This document shows, piece by piece, positions 285-16,905 of a DNA stretch of 20,000 bases. This DNA is from an uncultured virus (IMG/VR IMGVR_UViG_3300017963_000250) (taxonomy: Duplodnaviria > Heunggongvirae > Uroviricota > Caudoviricetes): the IMG/VR virus record IMGVR_UViG_3300017963_000250. One strand, written 5' to 3'. Each line of letters begins with the position of its first letter. Within the stretch, counting starts at the first letter, position 1. Under the pieces are notes generated by a model, which was given only the letters and a program-made list of their open reading frames with translations, ran no database searches and had not been told where the DNA came from. Position numbers and translations under genes: made by a program.

Positions 285-599
285 TTATTTTCGGTTGTTC
301 TCGGATAATTTTTGTACGTAATAGTAAAACGCTATCGTCGCCCACGGGATAACGACGCCTGACCCGAGCGCGACCAGCATCGCCTTCTGGTGGAGCTTGA
401 CGTTCTGCCAGTCCATGTTCTTGAGGTTGCTGTACGCTTCCTTGCCGGACTCGATCACGGTCGGTGCCATCCTGAACGCGATCCCGGCGAAGATGAGACT
501 GCCGAGTATATTCTTCGTGTTCGGCTTTACCTCGAAATTCTCGACGGCACCCATGCCGTTCACTACCTTTTTGATGGTATCCAGTTCGGTGTTTTTCAT
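285..599 (-). CDS. Small membrane protein with two hydrophobic segments
   Basis: Coupled to the upstream gene (TAATG overlap at 599). Hydrophobic stretches ILGSLIFAGIAF and MLVALGSGVVIPWATIAFYYYV; NGMG motif near the N-terminus. Confidence 0.75.
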   Translation of the reverse strand: MKNTELDTIKKVVNGMGAVENFEVKPNTKNILGSLIFAGIAFRMAPTVIESGKEAYSNLKNMDWQNVKLHQKAMLVALGSGVVIPWATIAFYYYVQKLSENNRK

Positions 600-1006
600 T
601 ATTCAGAAAGCTTTCCGTGAAAGTACAACCTGAACGCGGTCTGTGCCGATAGTGACGTGTTCGTGAACCGAACCCGTGCCAGGGGCGCTACCGTCGTTAC
701 ACGGAACGTCTGCCGCGTATTCTTCGTGTACAGGGTCTGTTCTACCCCGTCCCAGTTGCTGCCGCCATCGGACGAAAAATCGACGAAAAGAGTACCGCTC
801 TGGTCCGCAAAACAGGTGCCTGTTATAAATGAAAAATTGTTGCAGGCGAAAGAAGAAGAGGGGTACGTCGCGCCGGCACCGAGCGGGGTCGTCGTGTTTC
901 CGATCGCACGGATATCTGTAGACACCGGGAATATAAACGTCCCACCGCCCTCGACCCCAAGCAGGGTAGCGAGAAATTCCACCTCGTAACGTGCTCTGTT
1001 CGACAT
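599..1006 (-). CDS. All-beta virion protein, putative single jelly-roll (vertex/spike-like)
   Basis: AAGGA RBS. Alternating beta pattern (FADQSGTLFVDFSSDG, ARVRFTN, FRLYFHG). Resembles 3604..3969. Confidence 0.6.
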   Translation of the reverse strand: MSNRARYEVEFLATLLGVEGGGTFIFPVSTDIRAIGNTTTPLGAGATYPSSSFACNNFSFITGTCFADQSGTLFVDFSSDGGSNWDGVEQTLYTKNTRQTFRVTTVAPLARVRFTNTSLSAQTAFRLYFHGKLSE

Positions 1007-1019
1007 CAGCTATTCCTTA

Positions 1020-1265
1020 TTATTGTGGTATCGCCCCGCCATAAAGGGTCGAAAGGTTCGCGATCTGCTTGCCGCCGGCACCGGCCTCAGGGGCGACCTC
1101 CTCCTGCGGTTCGGTAACAGATGGTGCCGGAACGCCTCCGTTTACGACGAGATTGGTGGGGACGCCACCACCGTTAATCGCCGGTGCCGCCGGTCGCTTC
1201 TTGTACCAGTTCCAGACAACCACGCCGCCTATGCTAAGTGCTACCAGTCCGATAATCTTTTTCAT
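1020..1265 (-). CDS. Small N-terminally anchored membrane protein with Pro/Gly/Ala-rich tail
   Basis: Start revised to ATG 1265 (GAGG RBS upstream). MKKIIGLVALSIGGVVVWNWYKKR is one TM helix flanked by basic residues. Confidence 0.7.
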   Translation of the reverse strand: MKKIIGLVALSIGGVVVWNWYKKRPAAPAINGGGVPTNLVVNGGVPAPSVTEPQEEVAPEAGAGGKQIANLSTLYGGAIPQ

Positions 1266-2088
1266 TTTGTTATACCTCATAAAATGGTGGTTACTGGTTC
1301 AAAATAACGATTTTCAGGAATGGAAAGAGGTGGCAACTCAAAAATCACCCTCTCTTTCCCCTCTGTGGTTATTTCTGTCATCACAAACTCAGGTGGAAGA
1401 ATATCTCCCTCTGCATTTAACCTCTCAAGCAATATGTCATACAGCATGTGCAGTATGTTGTCTATGTCGGTACGCGAAACGTGGGAACGGGACCGAAATG
1501 CAATTTTTACACGCCCTAATTCAGACTGTAAAGAAAGAATGGTCCCGACGTACAAGTCGAATTCCAGGTCTAAACCTAAAAAGGTATAACTACCTGTAAA
1601 GCTCTCTGAGACTTCGCTTCTGCCAATCGACAATGTTTTCCCGTTGTGCGTTAAAGTGATGTTGCTACCATCGTAATCAACATACACCGTATATATGGGA
1701 AAGGCCCCTGCCGGAGCAACCTCCCTACGCCAGTTGATTTTAAAGGGGACGGTGGCATCAAAAAGAGACACCATCCCATCGGAGAAAGCGTCCTGCGTAC
1801 TCATGGGCACGGTTCTCTCAATAAACATATTTACCGAAACCTCGCCATATCTTTGCCCTTTTTCCAATATCTCCTTTGAGAACGCTTCTATAGGGTGCTT
1901 TGCCAGTTGCCCATTTTCCATCCTGTACGTCGCTGCCCCGTTGTAGTAAATATCAATCGTCTTTTTCCCACGCCACCATTTCCATGCTAAATATCCTGCG
2001 GTTCCTGCCGCTCCAGCAGCAAGTATTCCCGTGCCTAATTTCCCAAACAAGCCCGGATTACATCGTTTTTTCATTTTGTTATACCTCA
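1258..2088. repeat. 22-bp direct repeat flanking one gene (copies at 1258-1279 and 2067-2088)
   Basis: TTTTTCATTTTGTTATACCTCA occurs twice. On the minus strand it reads TGAGGTATAACAAAATGAAAAA, which supplies a stop codon, RBS and start (MKK). Confidence 0.9.
1277..2074 (-). CDS. Membrane-anchored protein: NP motif, TM helix, paralogous alpha/beta domain and extra C-terminal domain
   Basis: Start revised to ATG 2074 (RBS within the repeat). KKRCNPG...AGYLAWKWWRGKK is followed by a domain weakly like those of the two upstream genes. Visibly AT-richer than its neighbours. Confidence 0.75.
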   Translation of the reverse strand: MKKRCNPGLFGKLGTGILAAGAAGTAGYLAWKWWRGKKTIDIYYNGAATYRMENGQLAKHPIEAFSKEILEKGQRYGEVSVNMFIERTVPMSTQDAFSDGMVSLFDATVPFKINWRREVAPAGAFPIYTVYVDYDGSNITLTHNGKTLSIGRSEVSESFTGSYTFLGLDLEFDLYVGTILSLQSELGRVKIAFRSRSHVSRTDIDNILHMLYDILLERLNAEGDILPPEFVMTEITTEGKERVIFELPPLSIPENRYFEPVTTIL

Positions 2089-2516
2089 ACTACATGTTTG
2101 TAAACCTCTACCTTGAACGGCATCGTCCCCGCCTCGTTCGCTATCTCCGAAAACTTCAATGAAGTCGACTCGGACGCGACGCCCGGCACGAAATTGACAT
2201 GCACTACTATCCTGCTGACCATGTTCGCTAAGTCGAGGAGATCCATCCTCATCCGATCGAGCGAATACGGCAGGTAATACGCAACCCCGTTCTCCGACTG
2301 CTTCACGCGGAAAAATTCGTCGCCTTTGTGTAAAATATTGATATACCCCGTATCGCGGCGACGAAAATACCTGTTCCACGCCCACGCGGCCACGCCGGCA
2401 ATGCCGATAATTTTCCAGCTTATCCCGAACGGGTTACCGCGCAACCTTCGCATCTTTGGAGGTTTCCCTGTCCTCGGACAAATCATTTGTGCCCCTCCGG
2501 TATCTCTGGTTTCCAT
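2079..2516 (-). CDS. Membrane-anchored protein, paralog of the C-terminal part of 2516..3604
   Basis: RRLRGNPFGISWKIIGIAGVAAWAWNRYFRR aligns with RRNPFGVSWTKIALGAGIAGVGWWAWNRFLRK; RIVVHVNF with KIVVRVFF; PFKVEVYKH with PYPIEIQKH. TGATG coupling at 2516. Confidence 0.8.
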   Translation of the reverse strand: METRDTGGAQMICPRTGKPPKMRRLRGNPFGISWKIIGIAGVAAWAWNRYFRRRDTGYINILHKGDEFFRVKQSENGVAYYLPYSLDRMRMDLLDLANMVSRIVVHVNFVPGVASESTSLKFSEIANEAGTMPFKVEVYKHVVEV

Positions 2517-3604
2517 CAGTCGAAGTGTTTCTGTATCTCTATGGGGTATGGGAAATTCTTTACGAATTCCATAAGCAACCCGAACGTGGTGTCGGCGACA
2601 GTGCTCGCGATCTGGCGCGAGAAGAACACCCGCACCACGATCTTGTCGTACTTCTTGCCGAGAGAGTTCAGGTCGTTCTCGAACTGCTTCATCTCGTAGG
2701 CGACCATCTTGTTCTGCGCCTTGTCGAAAATGAAGGCGTTCACCCCGTCGTGAAACACGGTCATCACGGCGGCGGCGATGCCGGCACCGAAGTGTTTCTG
2801 TATCTCTATGGGGTATGGGAAAGTCTTTACGAATTCCATAAGCAACCCGAACGTGGTATCAGCGACGGTACTCGCGATCTGGCGCGAGAAAAACACCCGT
2901 ACCACGATCTTGTCGTACTTCTTGCCGAGGTAGTTCAAGTCGCCCTCGAATTGTTTCATCTCGTAGACAACCCTCTTATTCTGCGCCTTGTCGAAAATGA
3001 AGGCGTTCACCCCGTCGTGAAACACGGTCATCACGTAAAGCGGTTGTTTGCGCAGAAACCGGTTCCACGCCCACCACCCGACACCGGCAATGCCGGCACC
3101 GAGCGCGATCTTGGTCCAGCTAACGCCGAACGGGTTACGGCGGATCAACCTGTCCGCCTGCTTTTTGGGGTATCTTCTCCGTATCGCTTTTTTCATGTCA
3201 TCGTCCATCTTCCAGAACATCTGCCGGCGGTGCGATCTCAGCCAGGACTTCGCCTTCGACTTCGTCCACCGCTGGTACGGTTTCAACTGTATCGTCCGGC
3301 CCTGGTGCGTGATCGACCTACCGGTGGGGAACACCAGGCCCTGCACCCTGGTCGCGCGTCCGCCCTCGTACTTTGTCGACGGTTTTGCGCCGTACGGCGA
3401 CCCGAATCGGAGCAGGATCGGGCCGTGCTCCTTGTGCTTCAACCCTACATACTTGCTCCGGAACCACCGTTTGCCGGCGCGTTCCTGGAATATTTCCTTG
3501 TCCTTCAGTGTATAGTGTACCGAACGCGGCTTCTCGGCCCACCGGCCCTCATCGGCGAGCATATCCAACATCGCCGCCATACCGATCACCGGTTGCGGAG
3601 GCAT
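2516..3604 (-). CDS. Basic N-terminal domain + RRNP + TM helix + tandemly duplicated ~82-aa domain
   Basis: Coupled at both ends. K/R-rich N-terminal half, one TM segment, and MTVFHDG...IQKHF present twice. Confidence 0.85.
   Translation of the reverse strand: MPPQPVIGMAAMLDMLADEGRWAEKPRSVHYTLKDKEIFQERAGKRWFRSKYVGLKHKEHGPILLRFGSPYGAKPSTKYEGGRATRVQGLVFPTGRSITHQGRTIQLKPYQRWTKSKAKSWLRSHRRQMFWKMDDDMKKAIRRRYPKKQADRLIRRNPFGVSWTKIALGAGIAGVGWWAWNRFLRKQPLYVMTVFHDGVNAFIFDKAQNKRVVYEMKQFEGDLNYLGKKYDKIVVRVFFSRQIASTVADTTFGLLMEFVKTFPYPIEIQKHFGAGIAAAVMTVFHDGVNAFIFDKAQNKMVAYEMKQFENDLNSLGKKYDKIVVRVFFSRQIASTVADTTFGLLMEFVKNFPYPIEIQKHFD
2521..3035. repeat. Intragenic tandem duplication, ~248-bp copies (2521-2768 and 2788-3035; period 267 bp)
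   Basis: Alignment by eye gives about 18 mismatches, mostly synonymous, with 5 amino-acid changes. Confidence 0.95.
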
Positions 3605-3969
3605 TACGCTATCCCCCTCGCGTCGAAGTTCGCCCTGATAGTCGCGGTGAAACCGGACGCATTGGTCAAGGTCACCCGCGCGAAATTGCCGTGGACCGGC
3701 ACTATCCGCGCTTCGGTCGTACCGGCAGCGACGGTCACCGTCGGGATACTGTGGTCGTACGTCAGCGTACCGCCCCGGTCGTCGACTCCCTGCTCGACAT
3801 CGAGCGAAATCGTCTGGGACGAATAGACCTGGCCGAATATGACCGAATACCCCTCGATCGGCGTCTCGAACGAAACGCTGCTGCCGGTCGCGAGCGTACT
3901 CACGTAATCGGCGATCGTGATCGGCTCCTGATACCCGATCTGCACCTTCCGTACTATCGGTATTGTCAT
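3604..3969 (-). CDS. All-beta virion protein, putative single jelly-roll
   Basis: Beta-strand periodicity throughout. VYSSQTISLDVEQG and FARVTLTNAS parallel CFADQSGTLFVDFS and LARVRFTNTS of 599..1006. Confidence 0.6.
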   Translation of the reverse strand: MTIPIVRKVQIGYQEPITIADYVSTLATGSSVSFETPIEGYSVIFGQVYSSQTISLDVEQGVDDRGGTLTYDHSIPTVTVAAGTTEARIVPVHGNFARVTLTNASGFTATIRANFDARGIA

Positions 3970-3970
3970 C

Positions 3971-4669
3971 TTACTGCTCCTGTGTTGGGACCGGGTACGC
4001 TATGCCGCGGATATAGATCCTGAGTCCATGGTTGTACACCGAACTCTGGTTCGAGACCAGGAAGTACACCGTCTCCTGCTCCCTCGCCATGCCGGCGTTA
4101 CCGGACTCGTATACCCAATAGTTGTCGGGGAAACCTATGCCGCTGGTGCTACTGATGGTCGATGGCGGTACCCCGACGATCCCGGTCGTCCGCGTCTCGG
4201 TAACCAGCACCGGATCGTCGAACGGCGGCACCGTCGCGACCGAGTCCACCTTCCCGCTCTGGAACACCGAGTCGTCGCCGAGGAACAGCCTGACAATGAT
4301 ATCCTGCGCGCCCTGGCAGGTAAAGTATTCCCACGAATAATCGGTAAGCTCGAAAATCGTGTTCCTGGGGACGACGACTATCGGGATGTACAGGTTGGAA
4401 CTCGGCGGGATCTTTCGTACCTGCGGCGACAGGTTCACTTCGCGCACCTGCTTGTCGCCTCTGCCGTATGGGATCTCTATGTTCTGGATATAGTTCGGAA
4501 GAAGCGCATACGGGTTGTCAGGCCGGAGCGTCGACAAATCCTCGAACGTCGACGCCAACCGCGCACCGACCCCTCGTGGTTCGGTATAGTACGGGACCCG
4601 CGACCGATCGGGCACCTTCCGGCAACGAAACAAACTCTCAATGCTAAATTCGTCCAGGAAACCACCCAT
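3971..4669 (-). CDS. Beta-rich putative minor capsid/penton-like protein
   Basis: 1-bp gaps to both neighbours. Beta-rich C-terminal two thirds ending TVYFLVSN...LRIYIRGIAY, like the terminal strands of the adjacent proteins. Confidence 0.55.
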   Translation of the reverse strand: MGGFLDEFSIESLFRCRKVPDRSRVPYYTEPRGVGARLASTFEDLSTLRPDNPYALLPNYIQNIEIPYGRGDKQVREVNLSPQVRKIPPSSNLYIPIVVVPRNTIFELTDYSWEYFTCQGAQDIIVRLFLGDDSVFQSGKVDSVATVPPFDDPVLVTETRTTGIVGVPPSTISSTSGIGFPDNYWVYESGNAGMAREQETVYFLVSNQSSVYNHGLRIYIRGIAYPVPTQEQ

Positions 4670-4670
4670 C

Positions 4671-5549
4671 TCAAGTTCTCCGGTAATATATATTGAACCC
4701 GGCCAAAGCGAAATACACGGTGTTGGACGACCCGGTGAGGTTTTGAAAACGTAGCTTGAATTGCGTCTTGCGTTGAAATATCTGCGGTTCGAAGTCGCGA
4801 TAGTATTCCGCGTTGCCGCCGATCATGCCGCTGTGTATCCACCCATTCATGAGTTCAAAACCGGTACCGACATTCGACACCCTGACCTTGTACGCGCCGG
4901 TACTGTACGTGAGCATCCGACGCAGGTAAAAATCGGCGTCACTTATGAAGGTGATATATGCCACGACCTCGGTCCCGACACCGGCACCGATCGTTATCCC
5001 GGAATCGGTCGTGTAGAAAAACGGACGTGCCATCCGGCTCGCCGGCGACAGTTCGTCAATGAGACTCCTGGCGTCGAAATAGTATCGCTGGCCTTCGAAC
5101 GCGAGCCTGACGTCATTCGGCGCGCCGGACAGATCCGCCAGGTCGACGACAAGTGACTGGGTCTCGTGTAAAAGCATCGGGATCGGAAGCTCGAACGGCC
5201 GTTGCCCGTTCCCGACAATGAGGCGGCTGTGGATCGGCCTGTTCGACATGTAGCGTTGATACTCGTTGTCGAAAATGAACAGGGTATAATCCTGCGAGGT
5301 CGCGATCCCCTTCAGGCGTCTCAGGTCTATCGCGCCGGCCTTGTCGTTACTCATGTTCCTCCTGGCGGTCCCGGCGGCAGGCACGGACACGACACTGTCG
5401 CCGGCCTGCTCGTCCCAGGTCAAGTCGTACGGGGTCGACGCGATCAAGACACTGTTCGGCTGTAGGCCACGAGTCTCGCTCTCTATGAGGGGCGCGAAAT
5501 TTGACAGTGACTCAAGATATATCGGCGTTATTTTGTTCTCTACCACCAT
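4671..5549 (-). CDS. Internally duplicated beta protein, putative double jelly-roll capsid protein
   Basis: The two halves align: LRRLKG/LRRMLT; YMSNRPIHSRLIVGNG/ELMNGWIHSGMIGGNA; LVVDLADLSGAPNDVRLAFEGQRYY/FKLRFQNLTGSSNTVYFALAGFNIY. GAGG RBS. The fold is inferred. Confidence 0.6.
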   Translation of the reverse strand: MVVENKITPIYLESLSNFAPLIESETRGLQPNSVLIASTPYDLTWDEQAGDSVVSVPAAGTARRNMSNDKAGAIDLRRLKGIATSQDYTLFIFDNEYQRYMSNRPIHSRLIVGNGQRPFELPIPMLLHETQSLVVDLADLSGAPNDVRLAFEGQRYYFDARSLIDELSPASRMARPFFYTTDSGITIGAGVGTEVVAYITFISDADFYLRRMLTYSTGAYKVRVSNVGTGFELMNGWIHSGMIGGNAEYYRDFEPQIFQRKTQFKLRFQNLTGSSNTVYFALAGFNIYYRRT

Positions 5550-5609
5550 TAGATGTTTACCTCAAATCTGATTTTGTTGAATCCCACCCACCACCCGAGA
5601 TTTTTTTCT

Positions 5610-5939
5610 CTATTTTACGATGCTGTGAGGCTCGATGATGAACACTTCCAGGTTACCGGTCGCGTTGACACCGTCCTCGTTCGTGAGCGTGATCGTGTCG
5701 GTCGGTGCCCCGCTCTTGGCAACGCTTACGAGCGGGGTGCCCGCTGCCGGCGAGGCCGCATGGTTCACGACCGGCCAGGTGTTGTCGCTGATGCCGGGAT
5801 GGGTCGAGGGCAAAGTCACGTCGCCACCGCCACCCGCAGCCGTGATGGTGCCGTTTGCACCGGCGGCAAGCGAGATCCCGGTGATGCGGGCCGCGTACTT
5901 ACCCTGAGAAACTACTACTGCTGTTCCCGTGAAAGCCAT
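5610..5939 (-). CDS. Ala/Gly/Thr-rich small beta protein (decoration/spike-like)
   Basis: AAAGGT RBS. Small-residue-rich composition; lies directly downstream of the capsid candidate. Confidence 0.65.
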   Translation of the reverse strand: MAFTGTAVVVSQGKYAARITGISLAAGANGTITAAGGGGDVTLPSTHPGISDNTWPVVNHAASPAAGTPLVSVAKSGAPTDTITLTNEDGVNATGNLEVFIIEPHSIVK

Positions 5940-5981
5940 TTTTGTTACCTTTCAAAAATTTTGTCTCCGTGTACAAAAGGC

Positions 5982-6021
5982 GAAAATAACCGTGACGTCG
6001 GCTAAAAACCAACGCCACGGT
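5982..6021 (-). terminator. Hairpin/intrinsic terminator after the 192-aa gene
   Basis: Minus strand reads ACCGTGGCGTTGG-TTTTTAG-CCGACGTCACGGT (13-bp stem with two G-U pairs that only form on this strand), followed by TATTTT. Confidence 0.65.
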
Positions 6022-6043
6022 CAGAAAGAAGCCAGTGTGCCTG

Positions 6044-6622
6044 TTAGGCGGGACGTCCCAGAATTCCGTGCAGGTAGCACCACAGGTCGATCGTCGCGGT
6101 GAAGGCGACGGTGTTTACCGTGGTCAGCGTGGCCTGGAAGTCTTGCTGGCTGGGGATATGGAGAGGCTCGCCTTCCAGATCCAGCGGCAGATACACCAGG
6201 GGGGACCCGATCCCGTTCTGGAGTTCCAGGATGGTGGTCGCGGTGACGGTGGTCGCGGCGACTCCAGTCAATCCGGCAGCGGCGGGGATCATGTGGTACA
6301 TGGTCCTGAGGTACGGTTTCGAGGAAAGCTTGAACTCGAAATACGCTTCGTTCATCAAGCGTTCCAGGTCCGCGACCGCGGTGCCCTGCTGCACGAAGAT
6401 ACTCACTCCGAACGCATCGAAAGTGTGCGGCGCGGCGAGCGATCCATCCGAGGTCATGTTCGTGTCGCGGAGGGTTCCGCCGAGAAAGGTCTTGAAGAAC
6501 GTCACCGACTGGGCCGTGCCGGCGGCGAGTTGTTTGCGATCGTAGATGGGCTCGCGGAGATATTCGAGTACCGCTCTTCCGGTATCGTACTTGGCTGCAC
6601 GTCTGTTTCCTGGCATTGCCAT
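6044..6622 (-). CDS. Putative major capsid protein, single jelly-roll type
   Basis: Strong AAAGGAG RBS, hairpins on both sides and mostly C/G-ending codons. Beta-rich with EPIYD...VTFF...TNM..DGSL..PHTF...LHIPSQQDFQATL...LWCYLHG. The function is inferred. Confidence 0.6.
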   Translation of the reverse strand: MAMPGNRRAAKYDTGRAVLEYLREPIYDRKQLAAGTAQSVTFFKTFLGGTLRDTNMTSDGSLAAPHTFDAFGVSIFVQQGTAVADLERLMNEAYFEFKLSSKPYLRTMYHMIPAAAGLTGVAATTVTATTILELQNGIGSPLVYLPLDLEGEPLHIPSQQDFQATLTTVNTVAFTATIDLWCYLHGILGRPA

Positions 6623-6687
6623 AATCTATACTCCTTTGCTTTACTGTTTTCCTTGCATGAAAAAAACGGTTCTTTCTTTGATAAACT

Positions 6688-6726
6688 GTGGGTGCGTGAA
6701 TAACTGGTCAGTTTTCACGCACCCAC
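6688..6726. repeat. REP-like palindrome in the leader of the capsid candidate
   Basis: GTGGGTGCGTGAA (6688-6700) pairs perfectly with TTCACGCACCCAC (6714-6726); an inner AACTG/CAGTT pair extends the stem. Confidence 0.75.
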
Positions 6727-6739
6727 GACGAAACTCTAT

Positions 6740-8329
6740 CTATCTACGTCCGTAATACCCGCGCGGCATCCACGGCGCGTATTTGTACCTTCTGGCGTTA
6801 CGGAGAAGTTCCTCGTCGAACTGCTGCATGTACCCGCCGTAGTAGGAACCGAGCGATGCGCCCCGACGCGGCAGCGTCAGGTAATCGCCCATACCCTGGT
6901 TTTTCTTGTCCGGGAGGGTGAGGTAGTCGCCCATGCTGTTCTTGTCCGGCAGGGTGAGGTAGTCGCCCATGCTGTTCCGACGCGGCAGGGTCAGGTAGTC
7001 GCCCATGTTGTTGTTCTGGCGCGGCAGGGTCAGGTAGTCGCCCATGTTGTTCCGGCGCGGCAGGGTCAGGTAATCGTCCATCCCGACCGGAGCGACGTAG
7101 GGGGTGCCCCACTTCTTGCGGATGCACCCGATCGCCTGTACCGTCTTCAGGACGCCGACGATCCCGGCACCGACCTGGAGCGCGAAGGTGTGCCTCGGAG
7201 CCAGCCCCGGCGAGAAGTAGTCGAGGGCCTTCCCGACACCATAGGAAAGGGCGGCGACGCTGCCCCAGGTGGTGGCGACCGGCACCATCTCGTCTACGAC
7301 ATGGAGCACGTTCGCTCTCTGGGTCACGTTCTTGCGGAGCATGTCGTTTACCCAGTAAGCGAGTTTGCCGCTCTGCTTCTTCACCCACTCGTGGCCGCTC
7401 ACGAAATGCACGGCGGCACCGGCGATCGCGCCCTCGCCACCGTAGACCGCCCATTCCTGCCAGGTGAGAGGCGGGTTGACATGAACAAGGCCAAGTCCAC
7501 TGCTTCTTATGGTCGACTTCAGTTTTCCGTAATCGCCACCGGCACCGGCAATGATACCTTCCGCGACCTCAGACGGCACCTTTTCCCGCAACCGTCTGGC
7601 GAGAAACGCGAATTTCTTCTCGCTTGTTTGGAGTTCGTTGATTGAGCGAACCTGCCTCGGAGTCAACAACTGCATGGTACCCGGTTCCGCTTCTCTGATG
7701 CGGGTGGGCCTGCGCCTTCCGGCGACCGCGCCGCGTTCTTTGCGCCGCGTCACTGCCGCCTTGCCCTTCTTCGTCTTCGGTTTCGGTTTCCCGTTCTTCG
7801 GTTTGGCTTTGCGCTTCCGTTTCGGGCGGTATCCGCGCGCGGCGGCGTAAAGGGCTTTTCTTTCGGCAACACTGAGCTTCGACCAGTCGGCGTACGGCCA
7901 CATGAAGGGTGACCCCTTGTAGTCCTTGCCGTCATATTTCCACGACCCGTCCCAGCCCATCTGCTTGGCGAAGGTCTTGGACACGGTGACGCCCTTGTGC
8001 CCCTTGAGGTACCGCTGGTACTTCTTCGAAGCTTTCGGGTAACCCTTGATCGACTTCTTGGTTCGCTTCCGCTTCGCGACGGCCTCGACAGCCGGTGGCG
8101 AGGGGATGTTCTTCATGATCTTGCGCGCGTCACGATACCGACCGGCCCGCGTGAGTCCGGGGTTCTCCATCGCGGAGATCCGTTGGGCGGTCTGCCACTG
8201 GGTGAGGCCGGGATACTTCCGCCCGGTCTTGCCAAACCGGTACGTTGCCCGGTCTCGCTTGTAGGTGCGTTTACCTTTCTTCTTACGACGACGCTTCCTT
8301 CTCGGCGGGTTCAACATAAGAACTGGCAT
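6740..8329 (-). CDS. Large basic core/membrane protein with NP motifs and C-terminal MGDYLTLP repeats
   Basis: The start is probably ATG 8329 (MPVLMLNPPRRK; AAGGAG RBS) rather than 8377. K/R-rich N-terminal half, hydrophobic helices after VNPP, then a repeat tail. Confidence 0.85.
   Translation of the reverse strand: MPVLMLNPPRRKRRRKKKGKRTYKRDRATYRFGKTGRKYPGLTQWQTAQRISAMENPGLTRAGRYRDARKIMKNIPSPPAVEAVAKRKRTKKSIKGYPKASKKYQRYLKGHKGVTVSKTFAKQMGWDGSWKYDGKDYKGSPFMWPYADWSKLSVAERKALYAAARGYRPKRKRKAKPKNGKPKPKTKKGKAAVTRRKERGAVAGRRRPTRIREAEPGTMQLLTPRQVRSINELQTSEKKFAFLARRLREKVPSEVAEGIIAGAGGDYGKLKSTIRSSGLGLVHVNPPLTWQEWAVYGGEGAIAGAAVHFVSGHEWVKKQSGKLAYWVNDMLRKNVTQRANVLHVVDEMVPVATTWGSVAALSYGVGKALDYFSPGLAPRHTFALQVGAGIVGVLKTVQAIGCIRKKWGTPYVAPVGMDDYLTLPRRNNMGDYLTLPRQNNNMGDYLTLPRRNSMGDYLTLPDKNSMGDYLTLPDKKNQGMGDYLTLPRRGASLGSYYGGYMQQFDEELLRNARRYKYAPWMPRGYYGRR
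6864..7081 (-). repeat. Six in-frame copies of M(G/D)DYLTLP with short R/K/N linkers
   Basis: GGCAGGGTCAGGTAGTCGCCCAT-like unit repeated six times on the + strand at 36-42 bp periods, with synonymous variation. Confidence 0.95.
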
Positions 8330-8361
8330 ACGTTTCTCCTTTGCTTTACTGTTCTTCCGTT

Positions 8362-8796
8362 TTATTTGTGTAACCAACCATCTTTTTTCATGATCGTTTC
8401 GCCCAGCATGTAGACGTTGCCCTCTGTGTCGCTCACCAGAAAGGTTTGGGGTGCCTTGTGGACATACTTGTATGGTTGCTTACGAGAGTTTCTCCTTGGG
8501 GTGTAATAGATATTCTCCATGACCCCGATGTGCGAGACTATCTTTACCTTCCGCTCATCGATACCCGGCGGGGTTTTTTGCAAAGTGATTTTGTCCGGCA
8601 AAGCGTGGTGTTGTCGCCAGAAATCTTTCACCGAGGCGTTGAATTCCTTGCGCGTCAGACTAATACCCGCCTTCCTCGCCAGACGCTGCGCGTCCAGCCA
8701 CAGGTTCTCGACCTCGTCCGACTTGAGGTCGAGCGGCGGGTTCACCCGGAGCAAAAGTGGGTTCTGTTTCCGCTTCGCCTTCTTCCGCTTCGCCAT
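8362..8796 (-). CDS. Basic protein with two NP motifs followed by a globular domain
   Basis: Abuts the upstream stop. MAKRKKAKRKQNPLLLRVNPP leader. Confidence 0.8.
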   Translation of the reverse strand: MAKRKKAKRKQNPLLLRVNPPLDLKSDEVENLWLDAQRLARKAGISLTRKEFNASVKDFWRQHHALPDKITLQKTPPGIDERKVKIVSHIGVMENIYYTPRRNSRKQPYKYVHKAPQTFLVSDTEGNVYMLGETIMKKDGWLHK

Positions 8797-9381
8797 TTAT
8801 CTGCCCCATCCCCATTTGCGCCACATCCACCTGCCGCCAAAAAACGCGGTAGCGCCAAGAGCGACGGTGCCGACAACCGTGCCGATCCCGATACCGGGTT
8901 TGGCTGGTGCTACACCTGGTACCTTGGACACGGTCGGCGCGACGGGTGCTTCCGGAGCAGCCGGCGCTTTGACTTTGGCGATGTCGTACATTGCCTGCGC
9001 GTTGGTTTCGAGCGATTCGAGCATCCGGTAGGCGTCGGTAAAGTAGACGTACGCGCCGGTATCTCTCGCGGCTTTCACCTGCTTCGCAAACTCGCTGAAC
9101 GAATTTATGAGCGCGTCGAGATAGATAACGAGATCGGGATCGCTCGCCCACGTCGCTCTAACTTCGCCGTCAATTTGATTCAAGACCGGTTGAAGGCTGC
9201 TCAATATCGCGGTGATATCTTCTTCGAGCAAATTTCCGAGTTCGGACGCTTCTTCGAACGTCATAGCCCCCCCGCCGCCGACAGCAGCAAGTTCGGCTAT
9301 CATCTGGTCTACTTTCGCGTCCAGGCTTGCTCGGATGTTGCTAATGAGCGCCAAAAAATCGGTCAAAGTATTTTGCAACAT
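8797..9381 (-). CDS. Acidic helical protein with Pro-rich linker and C-terminal TM anchor
   Basis: GGAG RBS. Ends GIGIGTVVGTVALGATAFFGGRWMWRKW. Confidence 0.8.
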   Translation of the reverse strand: MLQNTLTDFLALISNIRASLDAKVDQMIAELAAVGGGGAMTFEEASELGNLLEEDITAILSSLQPVLNQIDGEVRATWASDPDLVIYLDALINSFSEFAKQVKAARDTGAYVYFTDAYRMLESLETNAQAMYDIAKVKAPAAPEAPVAPTVSKVPGVAPAKPGIGIGTVVGTVALGATAFFGGRWMWRKWGWGR

Positions 9382-9384
9382 TTT

Positions 9385-9879
9385 TCATCTCCGACTCTTG
9401 TAAAAATAACCCAAAAAAAACCCGAGTGTCGCGAAAGCGACGCCTCCGGCGGCGACTCTTCGCCAATTAACACTCACCTCTGGTTCGGACGCGCTGGGAC
9501 AGCCCATACATCCGAGTTGCGGGTTGTACGTGTCGCGCGGCCACGATGCCGTCGGCGGCATTACGTTACCCATTTGCGATCTCGATTCCAGCGGTTCGCT
9601 CACCCACTCCGGTTCGCTCTTCTTGGCAACGTCCTCGAATTCGACAAAACGTTCCGCGATCGCCGCGCCCAACTCCTCGCCGGTCTCGACACGTTCCTGC
9701 TCGACCTCTTCTGCCCGTTCCGGCAGTGTCTCATCGAGCACCATCTCCTGACGTGACGCGGCAAAGTTCTGCGGGTGGATCGCGGCATCGAACCCGCCCT
9801 GAAAATTCTTCCGTTTATAGTTCGTGCTCGACTTGCTGTCTCTGTGAGCACGGTATGAGTTCGTACCCATTATGTCCAT
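9385..9879 (-). CDS. Low-complexity protein with C-terminal TM anchor
   Basis: Fits the operon packing. Ends WRRVAAGGVAFATLGFFLGYFYKSRR; contains QMG and QLG motifs. Confidence 0.75.
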   Translation of the reverse strand: MDIMGTNSYRAHRDSKSSTNYKRKNFQGGFDAAIHPQNFAASRQEMVLDETLPERAEEVEQERVETGEELGAAIAERFVEFEDVAKKSEPEWVSEPLESRSQMGNVMPPTASWPRDTYNPQLGCMGCPSASEPEVSVNWRRVAAGGVAFATLGFFLGYFYKSRR

Positions 9880-9888
9880 GTTTTACCC

Positions 9889-10578
9889 CTATTTCCTGAC
9901 GGCGAGTCCGACAAGTATCACCGCTCCCGCGGCAAGCGCCCACGGGCCGTATTTCTCCACCGCGCTCTTTTCGGGCGCAACGGCAGGGGCGGTAGGAGTC
10001 GGATACGGCACGATGCCCTTTTGCTGCGCCACCGCCAGTCTCTGCGCTTCAATCATACGACGCGCGGCCTCGATCTGCTGCTGGGTCATGAGTTGCTGCT
10101 GTGTCACGGCCGTCGACGCCAACTGCGAGGTCTGGGCCGCGAGGTCGGCGGCAGACCCGGCGACAGTCGCGCCGGGCACGGTGGTGCCAGACTGAAGCGA
10201 CTGCAATACCGCAGCGGTACCGAACCCGGCGTTCTTCAAGAAATCGCCGGCACCACCGAGAAGCGCGCCCCAATCCTCACCGGTCCAGGTCGGCTCCTGG
10301 GGAGACTCCGCGATCTCGCTTTCCGTGAAGCGCGGGTACTGCGAGAACATCTCCGGCGACTCCTGCAACCATTCAACGCCGGTACCGGTCGGCGCGGTCT
10401 CGAACGCCCACTCAGCGCCGGTCCCATTCGTGGGCGGACCGACAGACTCTGGAAGGGGAAACGACTCGGGATCAAGATCTTGACCGAGGTCCCCGAGAAA
10501 GCTTCGACGCATACTCGGGCTCTTTGCCCTCGACTTCATCGTCGAGCGAAAACTTCTTCCTAGAAAAGCCATATACAC
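9889..10578 (-). CDS. Protein with basic leader, Gln/Ala helix and C-terminal TM anchor
   Basis: GAGGAG RBS. The leader ends at FLGDLGQ; the protein ends PWALAAGAVILVGLAVRK. Confidence 0.8.
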   Translation of the reverse strand: MYMAFLGRSFRSTMKSRAKSPSMRRSFLGDLGQDLDPESFPLPESVGPPTNGTGAEWAFETAPTGTGVEWLQESPEMFSQYPRFTESEIAESPQEPTWTGEDWGALLGGAGDFLKNAGFGTAAVLQSLQSGTTVPGATVAGSAADLAAQTSQLASTAVTQQQLMTQQQIEAARRMIEAQRLAVAQQKGIVPYPTPTAPAVAPEKSAVEKYGPWALAAGAVILVGLAVRK

Positions 10579-10587
10579 TCTCCTCTT

Positions 10588-10860
10588 CTATATCCGGCCC
10601 GCCGCTCTGAGCACGCTCCTGACGCCAATTCTCTTGAGATCGGCCTTGCCGAGACGCATCATGTTCTGAAGCGCAGCGGGCGACGGCGACGGGAAACCAC
10701 CGGTCCTCTCCAGCCTGCTCGCCGGCGCTAAACGCTGGTGTTCAGGCATAGACCACATTTTCGTGCCATACACGTTGCGCCCGCGAAAAAAACGCTTGCG
10801 CAGCGATGGACTGTTCATGGTGGACCTCATACTGGATGAAAAACCGTTACCCAAATACAT
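10588..10860 (-). CDS. Small basic protein sharing an N-terminal leader with 9889..10578
   Basis: AAGGAG RBS; Arg-rich. YLG..F...RSTM.SPSLRKRF compares with FLG.SFRSTM....SPSMRRSF. Confidence 0.7.
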   Translation of the reverse strand: MYLGNGFSSSMRSTMNSPSLRKRFFRGRNVYGTKMWSMPEHQRLAPASRLERTGGFPSPSPAALQNMMRLGKADLKRIGVRSVLRAAGRI

Positions 10861-10903
10861 TAAAAAACTCCTTCAATAAAGACGCCATAGGGAGGGAGAG
10901 GGG

Positions 10904-11062
10904 ATTCACCGCAGAGACGCAGAGGACGCAGAGATAAGAGAAGGATAATTCATTACCCCCCGTCAAAGTTTTTGAAGGGGGTCTGGGGGAAACTTTTTCC
11001 AAAAAGTTTCCCCCAACTCTTCTCTTTCTTCCCTCTGCGCTCTCTGCGTCTCTGCGGTGAAT
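10904..11062. repeat. Nested palindromic (REP/MITE-like) element
   Basis: Outer arms 10904-10933 and 11033-11062 match at 28/30 (ATTCACCGCAGAGACGCAGAG...). Inner perfect 15-bp inverted repeat TGGGGGAAACTTTTT-CC-AAAAAGTTTCCCCCA at 10984-11015. Confidence 0.9.
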
Positions 11063-11086
11063 TCTTCTTTCCCCATCATCGTGTCG

Positions 11087-12726: not shown

Positions 12727-12729
12727 AAT

Positions 12730-13005: not shown

Positions 13006-13006
13006 C

Positions 13007-14458
13007 TTAAGTGTAAAGGACGAACTTTTTCTGGTCGACTAACCCCTGCCATGGCGACGACTGCCGGTGCGTGTCGACCGGGATCGGCACTTCGATATTC
13101 TCGCGCGTTTCCTGGAACGCTATCGAATGGTCGGCGCGCGCACGTCGTTGCTCGATCTCTCGTTTATATTCGAGTTGCTGTCTGAATTCCTCCGGAGAAA
13201 GGCCGGCCTTTTCGACGTATTCATACATGGCCTTGCGCGCGAAATCGACCGCCCACCGTTCGGTCGCGGCCTTGATCTCGCCCTTGTACCTAGATATCTC
13301 CGCTTCGAACCCCTCCTTCTGCGCGACCTTCTCGCGTTCGAGATCTTCCTTCAGTTTCTTCTGGTAGAGCGCAAGTTCAAACTCTGCCTCTTTCTGCTTG
13401 GTGAGCAGCATCTCCATTACCTCGATATCGGCCTGGAGCTTGTTGATCGCCTCACGCTGCGCGCGTTTCTCCAGCGCCACCCGCGCCTTTTGTGCCTTGA
13501 GTTGCTTCAGTATCTTCTTGCGTTTCTTCAGTTGATCGTGTACCTCTACCGCGCTCGTGGCCGCGTTCGCGACCGATACGGCGGACGAGACGAGAAGCGC
13601 CGCCGTGCTACCGCCGGTGATGACGGTCAGTATCCCCGACCCGATGACCGACCCGAGTTTCGCCAGGAACTTCCACTCTTCGGACGTCATCTTGAACGGG
13701 GAGTCTTCCTCGAACTGGGACACCCAACCGATCGGCGTCAGGAGCACCACCCCTTTCACGAGTACGTTGAGGAAATGGCCCAGGAACCCGTGCTTTTCTT
13801 TCCACCGGTTGAGTTCCTTCGCTATCCTGCGTTCGACCCGGTCTATCTCGGCCTTTATCCGTCTTATCGCGCGTTTGATCTCTTTTTTTATCCGCTTCCA
13901 TGTCTTCGAAAACCATCCGGAAAGTTCCTGGTATCCGCCATCAATATCCCATACGGCGAGACGGTGATAATCGGGCGGGAACCAACCGGGGAAAGAGCCC
14001 GGAGTAGCGGGATCATAGGATACCCAGCCGTTTTGGGTCTGGGCTTGCAGGAGGATGTGGGAATAGTTTGGGTTGCCTTTCTCGGCGGCCACGGTGACGA
14101 ATCTGACAGGAATTCCAAGTCCGAGCAACATCGCGGCCAGACTGGTACACATGTCGTCGCAATCGCCGTACCCCGTTTTCACGGTGATAGCAGCGGACTG
14201 CACCAGTTCCGCCGTGTAGGGGTCGCGCACGAATTTTATATTGTTTTTCACCCACCAGAAAAGCGTGTTCGCCATGTGGAGGTTGTCGCGCGGCGCTGAC
14301 TCATGTGTGAGCTTGCGCGCGATCGAGATGACGTCCCAATCGGTCGACCCCTTCTTCGACTCCTCGACGATCGCCTCTATGGTGACCTTCGTGCCGGGCA
14401 CCCCGTATGGGATCTCCTGAAGCGACACCTTGTTCGGTTTTACCATCTCATGTGGCAT
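13007..14458 (-). CDS. Transglutaminase-like (papain-fold) cysteine enzyme fused to amphipathic, hydrophobic and coiled-coil regions
   Basis: Transglutaminase-like core: WVKNNIKFVRDP, GDCDD (Cys), GIPVRFV, YSHILL (His), WVSYDPA (Asp). GAGGA RBS. Confidence 0.85.
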   Translation of the reverse strand: MPHEMVKPNKVSLQEIPYGVPGTKVTIEAIVEESKKGSTDWDVISIARKLTHESAPRDNLHMANTLFWWVKNNIKFVRDPYTAELVQSAAITVKTGYGDCDDMCTSLAAMLLGLGIPVRFVTVAAEKGNPNYSHILLQAQTQNGWVSYDPATPGSFPGWFPPDYHRLAVWDIDGGYQELSGWFSKTWKRIKKEIKRAIRRIKAEIDRVERRIAKELNRWKEKHGFLGHFLNVLVKGVVLLTPIGWVSQFEEDSPFKMTSEEWKFLAKLGSVIGSGILTVITGGSTAALLVSSAVSVANAATSAVEVHDQLKKRKKILKQLKAQKARVALEKRAQREAINKLQADIEVMEMLLTKQKEAEFELALYQKKLKEDLEREKVAQKEGFEAEISRYKGEIKAATERWAVDFARKAMYEYVEKAGLSPEEFRQQLEYKREIEQRRARADHSIAFQETRENIEVPIPVDTHRQSSPWQGLVDQKKFVLYT

Positions 14459-15392
14459 GTCTTGTCCTCTGATATATACGTCTTATAAAATTGTCAAAGC
14501 TATTTACCGTGTCATCGACATGCACCACTGTCCCGCCGTCCATTTTCATCCTATTTGGAATGTACATGTCAAGCATGTCTGAATCAAACCAGCCCGCCTT
14601 CTTCGCCATCTCTTTTATCCTTCGACCAAGAAGTCGTGAACTGCTGACCTCAGAATACTGATATCCTAACCAGCGAAGATATTTTATAGACATCCTGTTG
14701 TACAATTGGGTATACGTGACCCCTTTTTTTCTTAGCCGGGCTCTAAACTTTTTTACCATACCAAAATGTCCAATTTCTTCTCCAACGCCCATAAATTCAT
14801 CTAGTTCCATTAGGGTCATAAACGGTCCGCCCATCTCGTCGGTAAGAAGGTCGTCAATATCTTCTATCGCCGGCTCGTACAGGGTACGTTTAGAAACTGG
14901 AGGAGACATAACTAATGCATACCTGTCCAAAGAAGTAATGTAAACAATAAATAACGGAGCATAGTTCAAAAACTTTGTGTCCCCTGGTGTCTTTGCGCCA
15001 GATACGCTAAAGGTTGTGTCGTCTGGATGAGAATGTATCGCAAAAATATTCTCCAACCCGCCAATTTCCATTACAACCTGACCAGGTATCTTCGAGGTAA
15101 GATAGTTCTTTCCATCTGCGATCAGGGTGTTTTGTCCCTCATATACAAGATACAAACCTATCTCATGTCCCTGTTTTGCTTTGTTTTTTGCAACTCTCTC
15201 AAAAACATCCATATTGCGAAAGACAAACCTGGCATAATAAAAAACAGCAAACCAAACCTTCTCCTTTTTCTTGTATCCTCCTCGATACTTCATGGGCTTC
15301 AGTGTCCCGTGCGTTCCGCTCTTCGTCAAAACTATCCGCTTTTTGTTTTTGTGTTCTAATATATCGCCTGGTTTGTATCCCTTCTCTGCCAT
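14448..15392 (-). CDS. JAB/MPN-like metallopeptidase domain protein (atypical spacing)
   Basis: HEIG (Glu) and IHSHPDDTTFS...GD resemble the JAMM E...HxH...S..D motif, but the Asp is further from the Ser than usual. Visibly AT-rich gene. Confidence 0.55.
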   Translation of the reverse strand: MAEKGYKPGDILEHKNKKRIVLTKSGTHGTLKPMKYRGGYKKKEKVWFAVFYYARFVFRNMDVFERVAKNKAKQGHEIGLYLVYEGQNTLIADGKNYLTSKIPGQVVMEIGGLENIFAIHSHPDDTTFSVSGAKTPGDTKFLNYAPLFIVYITSLDRYALVMSPPVSKRTLYEPAIEDIDDLLTDEMGGPFMTLMELDEFMGVGEEIGHFGMVKKFRARLRKKGVTYTQLYNRMSIKYLRWLGYQYSEVSSSRLLGRRIKEMAKKAGWFDSDMLDMYIPNRMKMDGGTVVHVDDTVNSFDNFIRRIYQRTRHAT

Positions 15393-15403
15393 TTTACTTC
15401 CTT

Positions 15404-15625
15404 CTACCTTTTCTTTTTCGTCGCCTTCTTCGCGGTTTTCTTCTTCGCGGCAGGTTTCCTTGCGGTCGTTTTCTTTTTCGCGGCGGGCTTTTTCTTCGCG
15501 GTTTTCTTTTTGGCGGTCGTTTTCTTTTTGGCTTTTTTCTTGGGTTTCGCGCTTTCGAGCATACCGCCCAAAATGCGCAAAGCTTTCTTCCTTGCCGGGG
15601 TCATTCTCACCATTTCTTCTGCCAT
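15404..15625 (-). CDS. Histone H1-like Lys/Ala-rich DNA-binding protein
   Basis: AAAGGTG RBS. KKTTAKKKTAKKKPAAKKKTTARKPAAKKK repeats. First gene of the leftward operon. Confidence 0.8.
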   Translation of the reverse strand: MAEEMVRMTPARKKALRILGGMLESAKPKKKAKKKTTAKKKTAKKKPAAKKKTTARKPAAKKKTAKKATKKKR

Positions 15626-15638
15626 AGTTTTACACCTT

Positions 15639-15791
15639 TATCACAAAAGTTTGACTGATATATCACGAAAGTTTGACTGATCTATCATATCGTATATATA
15701 GTAAATTACGTAATTGCAGGCGTGTCAATTAAAAAAGTATGACTGATCAGTCATATTTATCTTGACAAAAAGTCAAATATCAATATAGAAT
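15639..15791. promoter_or_regulatory. Divergent promoter/operator region
   Basis: Two 22-bp tandem repeats (15639-15682) and a perfect palindrome TATGACTGATCAGTCATA (15738-15755). Back-to-back TTGACA boxes on the minus (15723-15728) and plus (15762-15767) strands; the plus box has TAGAAT at 15786-15791. Confidence 0.7.
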
Positions 15792-15899
15792 AGGCAAAAT
15801 ATAGGGTCGGTTAATTTTTGGCCCTGTTATAAGTCACAACAACGTTTTGAAAGGTACGGCAGAAATGAAATAAAAAAAAATTTTTTCAGGAAAAAAAAC

Positions 15900-16499
15900 G
15901 TGAAAAGAAAAAGTAAAACCAAGGCAAAAAAACTCGCCAAGATAGAGGCGAGGAAAAAACGCCGGATAAACGTGTACGTGTGCCCGTTCTGCCTGGGGAT
16001 GAACAACTACATCCAGCCGTCGGTCGGCAACCACAAAAATTACTTCCGGTGCGATATCTGCCACGCTCGCGGGTTCGTCGAGGAGCAGATAGTAAAAGAA
16101 TACCTGATGATAGTCGAAGAGGTGATCGACAAGGAACTCCCGAACAAGCTTTACCGCGAAGACACCATCCCGCCCGAAAAGCAAGTGGATCTTATTGCGA
16201 AAGAGATCGCGATCAAAGAAGAAAAGGAGGATACAAAACGTGTGAGCCAATGGGACCGGACACTGTGGCTAAAAGAGTACCTGTGTCCGTTCTGTTTTAC
16301 CATGGAGACTTCCATCAAGATGAACAGGGGACTTGCGCACTACACCATCTTTTGCAAGCAATGCGCTTCGATATTTTTCCTTGACCGGATGGAGCGCGCG
16401 ATCCCGACGATGATGTTCATCGAACGCCTTCTTATCAAAAACTATTCGACCACTGACGCGGCCAGGCGCATTGCCAACAGTCGCACAAGGTCGATCTAA
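15900..16499 (+). CDS. Double Zn-ribbon protein, putative transcription regulator
   Basis: YVCPFC...CDIC and YLCPFC...CKQC; basic N-terminus. The GTG start is uncertain. Confidence 0.75.
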   Translation: MKRKSKTKAKKLAKIEARKKRRINVYVCPFCLGMNNYIQPSVGNHKNYFRCDICHARGFVEEQIVKEYLMIVEEVIDKELPNKLYREDTIPPEKQVDLIAKEIAIKEEKEDTKRVSQWDRTLWLKEYLCPFCFTMETSIKMNRGLAHYTIFCKQCASIFFLDRMERAIPTMMFIERLLIKNYSTTDAARRIANSRTRSI

Positions 16500-16516
16500 T
16501 TTTTAGGAGAGAGTAA

Positions 16517-16894
16517 ATGGTTGACGAAGAAAAACAAGGACAAGAACAGACCCAGGAACAGGGGCAGGACCCCGTAGTTACAGGCACACACTGCCCGCTG
16601 ATTTCGTCCTTCACGACGATCACTGAGCAGATGCGCGGCATCGTGCCGCCCGGCATGATGGGGCAGCATATCCCGCTGCTCGGCACCTGCATCGGCCCGA
16701 AATGTAAACCGTTCTGGCACCCGAAGCTGAACGAATGCCGGTTTGTCATCGCCACCGACATCCTCCACGACATCGGGTACTACCTGCACCGGTACTTCGA
16801 TGAGCTCGAAGACGAAGAGGACGAGCAAGAGCCCGAAACGGCAGACACCATAGGGGAGAAAGAAAGCGAGCCTGCCGGGCAGGAACCGAAATAA
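16517..16894 (+). CDS. Cys-containing hypothetical protein with acidic termini
   Basis: AGGAG RBS. CPL...CIGPKCKPFW...C is a possible metal site. Confidence 0.75.
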   Translation: MVDEEKQGQEQTQEQGQDPVVTGTHCPLISSFTTITEQMRGIVPPGMMGQHIPLLGTCIGPKCKPFWHPKLNECRFVIATDILHDIGYYLHRYFDELEDEEDEQEPETADTIGEKESEPAGQEPK

Positions 16895-16905
16895 GGGGGA
16901 CATCC

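Follow-up and report, generated by a model that had tools for sequence, protein, structure and literature searches.

The window analysed here, a 20,000-nucleotide stretch of the uncultured-virus record IMG/VR IMGVR_UViG_3300017963_000250, encodes a protein of 292 amino acids (aa) that consists of two mutually alignable halves and is predicted to fold as a double jelly-roll (DJR). The window is probably the structural module of an uncultivated double-stranded DNA virus, present on a contig of at least 84–93 kb, that would be tailless and similar to SSIP-1 (Salisaeta icosahedral phage 1), with the DJR protein as the major capsid protein (MCP) and a 192-aa single jelly-roll protein at the capsid vertices. 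What is new is a large family of DJR proteins in which the duplication is still visible in sequence, carried by viruses with genomes of 44–93 kb.

Internal repeat of the 292-aa protein

Two alignable halves in this protein had been pointed out in a preliminary description of the window, and pairwise, profile and hidden Markov model (HMM) comparisons bear this out. By BLASTP the halves match at E = 3e-4, and at 2.9e-6 for the best of four split points. When half profiles (residues 1–166 and 167–292) were taken from an alignment of 125 family members, HHalign aligned the N-half with the C-half over 120 columns with a probability of 99.9% and E = 6.8e-33. HMMs of the halves recognize the opposite half of the window protein with 58.9 and 86.1 bits, and distant homologs, when compared with the C-half of the window protein, are matched in their N-half (E about 1e-6). 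Both halves follow the pattern ...N.PIH...G.G..P..LP.P......L...F.DLSGAPN.V...F.G..YY, and the motifs closing them in the family consensus are DLSGAPN..R.AF.G.RYY and NLSGAPN.V.F.L.G...YY. In contrast, the same half-versus-half BLASTP comparison yields E = 0.03 for PM2 P2 and 8.8 for PRD1 P3, both DJR capsid proteins used as controls. For a distant relative encoded in another IMG/VR genome (G001) the value is 5e-6, and for SSIP-1 gp47 it is 0.008, a faint repeat.

Near relatives of the 292-aa protein number 12, including itself, in a set of 5.8 billion proteins. The search with the family profile retrieved 1,791 representative clusters (clustered at 50% identity) at E ≤ 1e-3, with 221 of them at E ≤ 1e-30. 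In one locus (L018) two adjoining genes, 3409-4314 and 4236-5342, each match the DJR protein (E = 1e-23 and 1e-7, respectively), and therefore this locus may carry two DJR paralogs.

Predicted fold and trimer

AlphaFold2, run with the 125-row alignment, produced a model of two beta-sandwiches with a predicted local distance difference test score (pLDDT) of 96.7 and a predicted template modelling score (pTM) of 0.92. Two consecutive eight-stranded jelly-rolls lie in one chain of this model in the mutual orientation typical of DJR proteins. A short helix is assigned by DSSP at the equivalent position of each half (residues 108–111 and 240–243), and in the prokaryotic DJR MCPs of Bamfordvirae (STIV B345, PRD1 P3, PM2 P2, FLiP and phiCjT23) both halves likewise contain such a helix at the corresponding position.

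When the model was compared by VIA-align with 48,161 PDB representatives, the top places were taken exclusively by DJR proteins. The scores were 11.5 for 8ic8 (arabinofuranosidase), 11.2 for 2bbd (STIV MCP; 229 residues aligned with root-mean-square deviation 4.4), 10.5 each for 7v1v (difructose dianhydride I synthase/hydrolase) and 4kq7 (DUF2961 protein), 9.3 each for 1w8x (PRD1 P3) and 2vvf (PM2 P2), 8.9 for 1sdw (PHM), 8.6 each for 6ncl (PBCV-1 MCP) and 5oac (FLiP MCP), 8.0 for 7zzz (phiCjT23 MCP) and 7.8 for 1pgs (PNGase F). We take 8ic8 to be a member of the same GH172 family as 4kq7 and 7v1v. Foldseek results are consistent with this ranking, with lower TM-scores; the STIV and PRD1 MCPs are listed there as well. 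The fused double jelly-roll with similar halves suggested earlier is thus supported by the AlphaFold2 model, VIA-align and HHalign: a jelly-roll topology is predicted, and the repeat is significant.

The protein is also predicted to form a closed ring of three. The interface score ipSAE of this trimer is 0.93, versus 0.09 for the best of three controls; in the calibration of the tool, 20 of 30 proteins with structures solved as pairs pass the mark, as does one of 23 solved as single chains. The trimer runs have at least 92% of contacts in common, with a partner pLDDT of at least 90. In the predicted interface residues 16–157 (N-half) of one copy face residues 169–292 (C-half) of the next, which as a prediction corresponds to the head-to-tail arrangement of DJR capsomers. 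Since DJR trimers are represented among solved structures, the high score may mirror likeness to them.

Age and origin of the duplication

A FastTree tree of 125 N-halves and 125 C-halves places each set on one side of a single branch (SH-like support 92), so that the N/C assignment requires one change, versus about 84 in 500 shuffles. Identity between family members goes down to 20–25%. As a single branch separates the two sets, the fusion predates the sampled family, and, on the evidence of the half tree, the duplication is older than the radiation of its members. The recent fusion considered in the preliminary description is contradicted by these separate clades. The 125-member tree contains no sign of concerted evolution or repeated fusions within the family; a single tandem duplication followed by fusion would have produced both halves.

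The hallmark of one virus kingdom, whose members range from small phages up to giant viruses, is the DJR capsid protein, and how this protein originated is a matter of dispute. The debate rests on structure because, to our knowledge, neither the two halves of known DJR capsid proteins nor the different families are similar enough in sequence to be of use. Two views are presented in PMC8812541: descent from the pair of single jelly-roll capsid genes present in helvetiaviruses, by their fusion, or from a cellular DUF2961-like protein that was already double. The duplication in the family studied here could be the same event as in other DJR capsid proteins or a separate one; for DUF2961, PMC8812541 leaves the same question open.

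Gene order of the module

Nearly all genes from about 285 to 15,625 of the window lie on the minus strand and are tightly packed. The same sequence is present on metagenome contigs of 84,340 and 93,198 bp, and one locus (L003) is the DNA of the window itself, reaching 5.3 kb past the window start and containing the full ATPase gene (L003:10741-11508). The genes and elements of the module are presented in Table 1.

Table 1. Genes and elements of the proposed structural module (positions in the window).
Feature	Position	Strand	Comment
255-aa P-loop ATPase, first 90 codons	1..271	-	Proposed packaging ATPase; Walker A GEPGSGKS; gene continues off the window start
104-aa protein, probably a membrane protein	285..599	-	Two hydrophobic segments (Kyte-Doolittle, residues 31-49 and 73-91); L004 homolog between the 135-like and ATPase genes
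135-aa beta protein	599..1006	-	Homolog after the 232-like gene in L004, 49% identity
121-aa beta protein	3604..3969	-	Homologs after the 232-like gene in L005, L009
232-aa protein	3971..4669	-	Directly after the DJR gene; kept there in L004, L005, L006, L008, L009
292-aa DJR protein	4671..5549	-	Proposed MCP
C-terminal jelly-roll, residues 167-292	4671..5051	-	Ends ...NLTGSSNTVYFALAGFNIYY
N-terminal jelly-roll, residues 1-166	5052..5549	-	Ends ...DLSGAPNDVRLAFEGQRYYF
109-aa Gly/Ala/Thr-rich small protein	5610..5939	-	Between the two jelly-roll genes; putative minor structural protein; homologs in the same module of L004, L005, L006, L009
192-aa single jelly-roll protein	6044..6622	-	Proposed penton (vertex) protein; alternatively, a second capsid protein
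Hairpin, 13-bp perfect stem, 13-nt loop	6688..6726	-	Read from the sequence; upstream of the 192-aa gene, 14 nt past the stop codon of the 545-aa one

In total 17 loci were examined, of which seven have the DJR gene at the contig end, and L001, L002 and L014 are near-identical copies. The 192-like gene adjoins the DJR gene, in the same order, in each of the ten loci that extend upstream of the latter. The longer order 192-like, (109-like), DJR, 232-like, 121-/135-like, (104-like), ATPase recurs in L004, L005 and L009, where the ATPase gene is kept downstream of the module.

Relationship to SSIP-1

SSIP-1 is a salt-lake phage, tailless and membrane-containing, with T=49; it is unclassified in NCBI taxonomy. 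Judged from three of its genes, the window virus is a large relative of this phage. The family profile of the DJR protein found SSIP-1 gp47 (256 aa) with an HMM E-value of 1.9e-6 among 25 proteins, and HHalign aligned the two over 71 columns with a probability of 67% and E = 5e-5, versus at most 1.6% for seven control capsid proteins from PM2, PRD1 and HHIV-2. The window ATPase and gp40 have 29% identity over 162 aa (BLASTP E = 4.4e-15). The third gene is gp46, just upstream of gp47, weakly matched by the 192-family profile at E = 0.0017. All three proteins are annotated as 'structural protein' in JN880423. The order gp46-then-gp47 is retained, a gene for a protein of about 200 aa being followed by one for a protein of about 260–290 aa in both viruses. 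The top structural match of the DJR model in BFVD is a 256-aa viral protein (TM-scores 0.59/0.66) that has the length of gp47 and may be that protein.

The differences from SSIP-1 are in genome size (43.8 kb versus contigs of at least 84–93 kb for the window) and in the remaining window genes, for which profile searches detect no homolog in SSIP-1. In the two reviews consulted, SSIP-1 is treated as 'single jelly roll?' (table in PMC6260650) or as a virus with two MCP types (PMC6356626), and not as a DJR virus. A literature search, which left most subscription journals uncovered, returned no published link between SSIP-1 and the DJR fold and no prokaryotic DJR viruses this large.

The 192-aa protein

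The DJR gene is accompanied by a gene for a penton-like protein of 192 aa. Its model is a jelly-roll with the penton protein of HHIV-2 as the best structural match (the matched structure is identified as such in PMC6414509). That this is a single jelly-roll protein had been proposed before; the model and the structural matches agree and place it with the viral capsid type. Most likely, going by the model, it forms pentamers at the fivefold vertices. The protein has eight close relatives with 56–100% identity, and the profile search reaches 23 proteins. Three distant members of this family (L014:8796-9710, L012:59-1006 and L010:227-1090) begin with an additional N-terminal segment of about 110 aa, whose first part is strongly acidic and whose second part is strongly basic; the window protein lacks this extension.

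According to the preliminary description, expression signals favour the 192-aa gene. Upstream of this gene the sequence does contain an intergenic region of 117 bp, the hairpin of Table 1 and, 8 nt ahead of the ATG, a strong AAAGGAG. The hairpin is not among the calls of the terminator scan, however, and the promoter and terminator scan of 3500..8500 gave no excess over shuffles (2 versus 1.7 and 4 versus 5.4, respectively). Shine-Dalgarno-like sites precede the 109- and 292-aa genes as well. For these two reasons, the scan and the sites at other genes, the expression argument is only suggestive.

The next gene upstream (6740..8377) encodes a 545-aa protein whose N-terminal third is extremely Lys/Arg-rich. 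It contains about six 12-aa repeats, MGDYLTLP(R/D)(R/K)NN, from a 36-bp array at 6863..7081, and its conservation in L004 is limited to the C-terminal 200 aa. It may be an internal core or DNA-binding protein.

Small proteins of the module

The preliminary description interpreted several beta proteins of the window as single-domain paralogs of the DJR protein. This was not borne out. In an all-against-all HHalign comparison of the 192, 232, 135, 121 and 109 families and the DJR halves (alignments of two to five sequences each, except for the 192 family and the DJR halves), only the N-half versus C-half match is significant, and none of the five families reaches more than 8% probability against the halves. 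The 192 family matches the halves at E = 0.006–0.007 with a probability of 6%, confined to the last strands. HMMs of the DJR halves found no other significant match among 24 window proteins.

Of the similar C-terminal strands listed earlier, all five (FRLYFHG, LRIYIRG, LWCYLHG, VRLAFEG and VYFALAG) are present in the translations, but profiles of the last strands match at E = 0.004–0.008 with probabilities of 5–8%, which is not significant. The resemblance of 599..1006 to 3604..3969 is a weak sequence match (BLASTP E = 0.076; HHalign E = 0.0076 and probability 5% over 85 columns, from alignments of two and three sequences) with some support from synteny: the slot after the 232-like gene is occupied by a 135-like gene in L004 and by a 121-like gene in L005 and L009. 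This suggests that the 121- and 135-aa proteins are positional equivalents and possibly distant paralogs.

The ESM Atlas model of the 232-aa protein is poor (pLDDT 0.50); its structural neighbours are single beta-sandwiches of the GOLD and PHM types with TM-scores of 0.4–0.46, so that residues from about 73 to 228 probably, on weak grounds, form a beta-sandwich. The 109-aa protein matches no Pfam or PHROG family. Among SSIP-1 and G001 proteins, profiles of the 232, 121, 135 and 109 families produced just two marginal matches, both of the 135 family in G001 (E = 0.002–0.004). Several small proteins encoded nearby contain hydrophobic segments, which is compatible with a membrane inside the virion.

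Four consecutive genes at 1020..3604 (86, 270, 145 and 362 aa) encode proteins with a Gly/Ala/Trp-rich hydrophobic segment followed by basic residues, and two of these proteins begin with the identical MRYNKMKK. L004 lacks this block between its 232-like and 135-like genes, so that the four genes seem to be an insertion and to form a growing paralog family whose products are membrane-anchored. One of them, the 362-aa gene (2516..3604), contains a 267-bp tandem duplication (2521..3035; 1.9 copies, 92% matches), which translates into two units of about 89 aa that are almost identical; this in-frame duplication of a domain within the module is truly recent.

Proposed capsid and alternatives

In the capsid that we propose, the 292-aa gene would encode the DJR MCP, three copies of which would join head to tail, the N-terminal jelly-roll of one against the C-terminal jelly-roll of the next, into a pseudo-hexagonal capsomer tiling an icosahedral shell. 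The 192-aa gene, two genes upstream, would supply single jelly-roll pentamers for the fivefold vertices, and the small beta and membrane proteins encoded after the DJR gene would have minor places at the vertices or in the membrane. DNA packaging would be the task of the RecA-like 255-aa ATPase with which the module ends.

Several results weigh against this proposal, some of them in favour of a particular alternative. The DJR family profile finds nothing below E = 0.4 among PDB sequences, the 292-aa protein matches no Pfam family at E ≤ 0.1, capsid families included, and HHalign of the family with the single sequences of PM2 P2 and PRD1 P3 yields probabilities of at most 0.8%. The ATPase is RadA/RecA/KaiC-like (PDB RadA at E = 4.6e-7; Pfam KaiC with 28.4 bits at a cutoff of 26.6). 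BLAST detects no similarity between it and the packaging ATPases PRD1 P9, PM2 P9 or that of HHIV-2; by sequence it is not detectably of the FtsK-HerA (A32 / PRD1 P9-like) type that goes with DJR MCPs. The third link to SSIP-1, between the 192 family and gp46, is weak by HHalign (probability 9.6%). The 192-aa protein has 73% identity with its L004 counterpart, versus 59% for the DJR protein. SSIP-1 is said to 'encode two MCP types' in PMC6356626. Finally, ESM Atlas neighbours bear automatic 'Uroviricota' labels, and G001 has a Gly_rich_2 / tail-fibre-like domain.

Given the two MCP types of SSIP-1, and given that the 192-aa protein is at least as well conserved as the DJR protein, a second major protein is conceivable. 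On this reading the single jelly-roll protein of 192 aa would be a further capsid protein, perhaps even the main one, sharing the shell with the DJR protein in capsomers of mixed or alternating composition. The pentons would be formed by another protein, for which the 232-, 135- and 121-aa beta proteins are free as candidates. The 'single jelly roll?' entry for SSIP-1 in the table of PMC6260650 agrees with such a lattice, as do the upstream region and the strong Shine-Dalgarno site of the 192-aa gene; the N-terminal extension of the distant 192 homologs would be unusual in a penton. Nevertheless, the DJR protein is predicted with high confidence to close a trimer alone, and the best match of the 192-aa model is a penton protein. 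Both points speak against the mixed capsomer with the 192-aa protein as the major component that had been envisaged in the preliminary description. Moreover, we know of no solved capsid in which DJR and single jelly-roll subunits are mixed inside hexameric capsomers. We consider a two-protein lattice unlikely.

It is still less likely, to the point of being improbable, that the module belongs to a tailed phage and that the two jelly-roll proteins are accessory parts (tail fibre, baseplate or head decoration) rather than the shell. Most of the ESM Atlas clusters nearest to it carry an automatic Uroviricota label, genomes of 78–93 kb are typical of tailed phages, the Gly_rich_2 domain of G001 coincides with a phrog_863 'tail fiber assembly' match (G001 80-544), and many BFVD matches are tail proteins, though with TM-scores of about 0.2. 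Against this, three genes are held in common with the tailless SSIP-1, and neither Pfam nor PHROGs revealed a terminase, portal or HK97 capsid family among the 27 open reading frames (ORFs) of the window or in G001 (Pfam on ORFs of at least 100 aa, 76 of 138; PHROGs on 44 of 138), although divergent versions could escape such profiles.

Highly improbable, in our view, is a third alternative in which the 292-aa protein would be a carbohydrate-active enzyme of DUF2961/GH172-like type carried by the virus, such as a depolymerase: its similarity to the cellular DUF2961-type DJR proteins (4kq7, 7v1v) is structural only, without a match to Pfam DUF2961, it is smaller than those enzymes (369–447 residues), its gene is kept beside a penton-like jelly-roll gene within a viral structural context, and its homolog in SSIP-1 has the annotation of a structural protein.

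Comparison with known capsid systems

The DJR capsid that we prefer resembles those of Bamfordvirae in the predicted ring-shaped trimer and in having an adjacent single jelly-roll gene; it differs in that no sequence or profile similarity of the window family to PM2 P2, PRD1 P3, Pfam families or PDB chains was detected. It differs also in genome size: prokaryotic DJR viruses are given as '<20 kbp' in PMC8812541, and the genomes of the window group are 4–5 times that.

In the small membrane proteins of the module there is some likeness to Helvetiavirae. Viruses of this group (HHIV-2, HCIV-1, P23-77) have two vertical single jelly-roll capsid proteins and a penton protein. In the window both putative lattice jelly-rolls belong to a single, uninterrupted ORF of 292 codons, and profile comparison with HHIV-2 VP4, VP7 and the gene 22 protein gave no similarity. 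A Helvetiavirae-type capsid with two separate single jelly-roll MCPs does not agree with this single ORF. The viruses of ANME-1 with 80-kb genomes ('Ekchuahviridae') were dropped as candidate DJR viruses, having been published as head-tailed.

Other observations on the window and related genomes

Searches for relatives and host signals gave little. In a tblastn search with the 292- and 192-aa proteins, no match was found in 50,697 phage records; IMG/VR scans with the 292-aa protein as a single query and with the 192-family alignment gave none either. The GTDB genome scan yielded one 3.2-kb contig of a metagenome-assembled genome, uninformative on the host. No tRNA was found in the window. For the 27 window ORFs, the Pfam cutoff was passed only by Transglut_core, and PHROGs produced just weak matches to families of unknown function. 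The Transglut_core protein (13007..14458; 483 aa, 48.8 bits at a cutoff of 23) has three hydrophobic segments in addition to the transglutaminase-like core.

Genome G001 is an IMG/VR record of 78,468 bp (CheckV 100%, 34% GC) that at the BLAST level has only the 192-like/DJR pair in common with the window. It encodes ThyX with an intein, a helicase with a LAGLIDADG insert and two TnpB/IS605 OrfB genes, as well as an AbiEii toxin domain, a tyrosine integrase, an SPFH protein, helicases and a methylase.

At 15000..16900 of the window the GC content is low (40%) and gene orientation turns from minus to plus; this region includes 22-bp direct repeats (15626..15687, about 2.4 copies) and could be a divergent promoter or origin region. 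Outside the window start, about 2 kb downstream of the ATPase gene, a 407-aa protein matches Pkinase at E = 2e-16 (L003:13456-14679).

Implications

A populous DJR family whose halves can be aligned provides sequence data for the question of DJR origin, and if the DJR protein forms the capsid, the genome range of prokaryote-type DJR viruses is widened from <20 kb to about 90 kb. SSIP-1, which is isolated and culturable, offers an experimental handle on this family. We suggest, with more doubt than for the capsid assignment itself, that SSIP-1-like viruses may be a large overlooked lineage of tailless, membrane-containing prokaryotic viruses, with at least 1,791 DJR clusters and genomes of 44–93 kb, whose little-diverged DJR protein, basal or independently duplicated, would lie structurally between DUF2961 proteins and classical DJR capsids. 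If this is true, the long-unclassified SSIP-1 gets a place, and, because the halves of these proteins still align, the step from single to double jelly-roll could be rooted and ordered by sequence phylogeny, not by structure alone.

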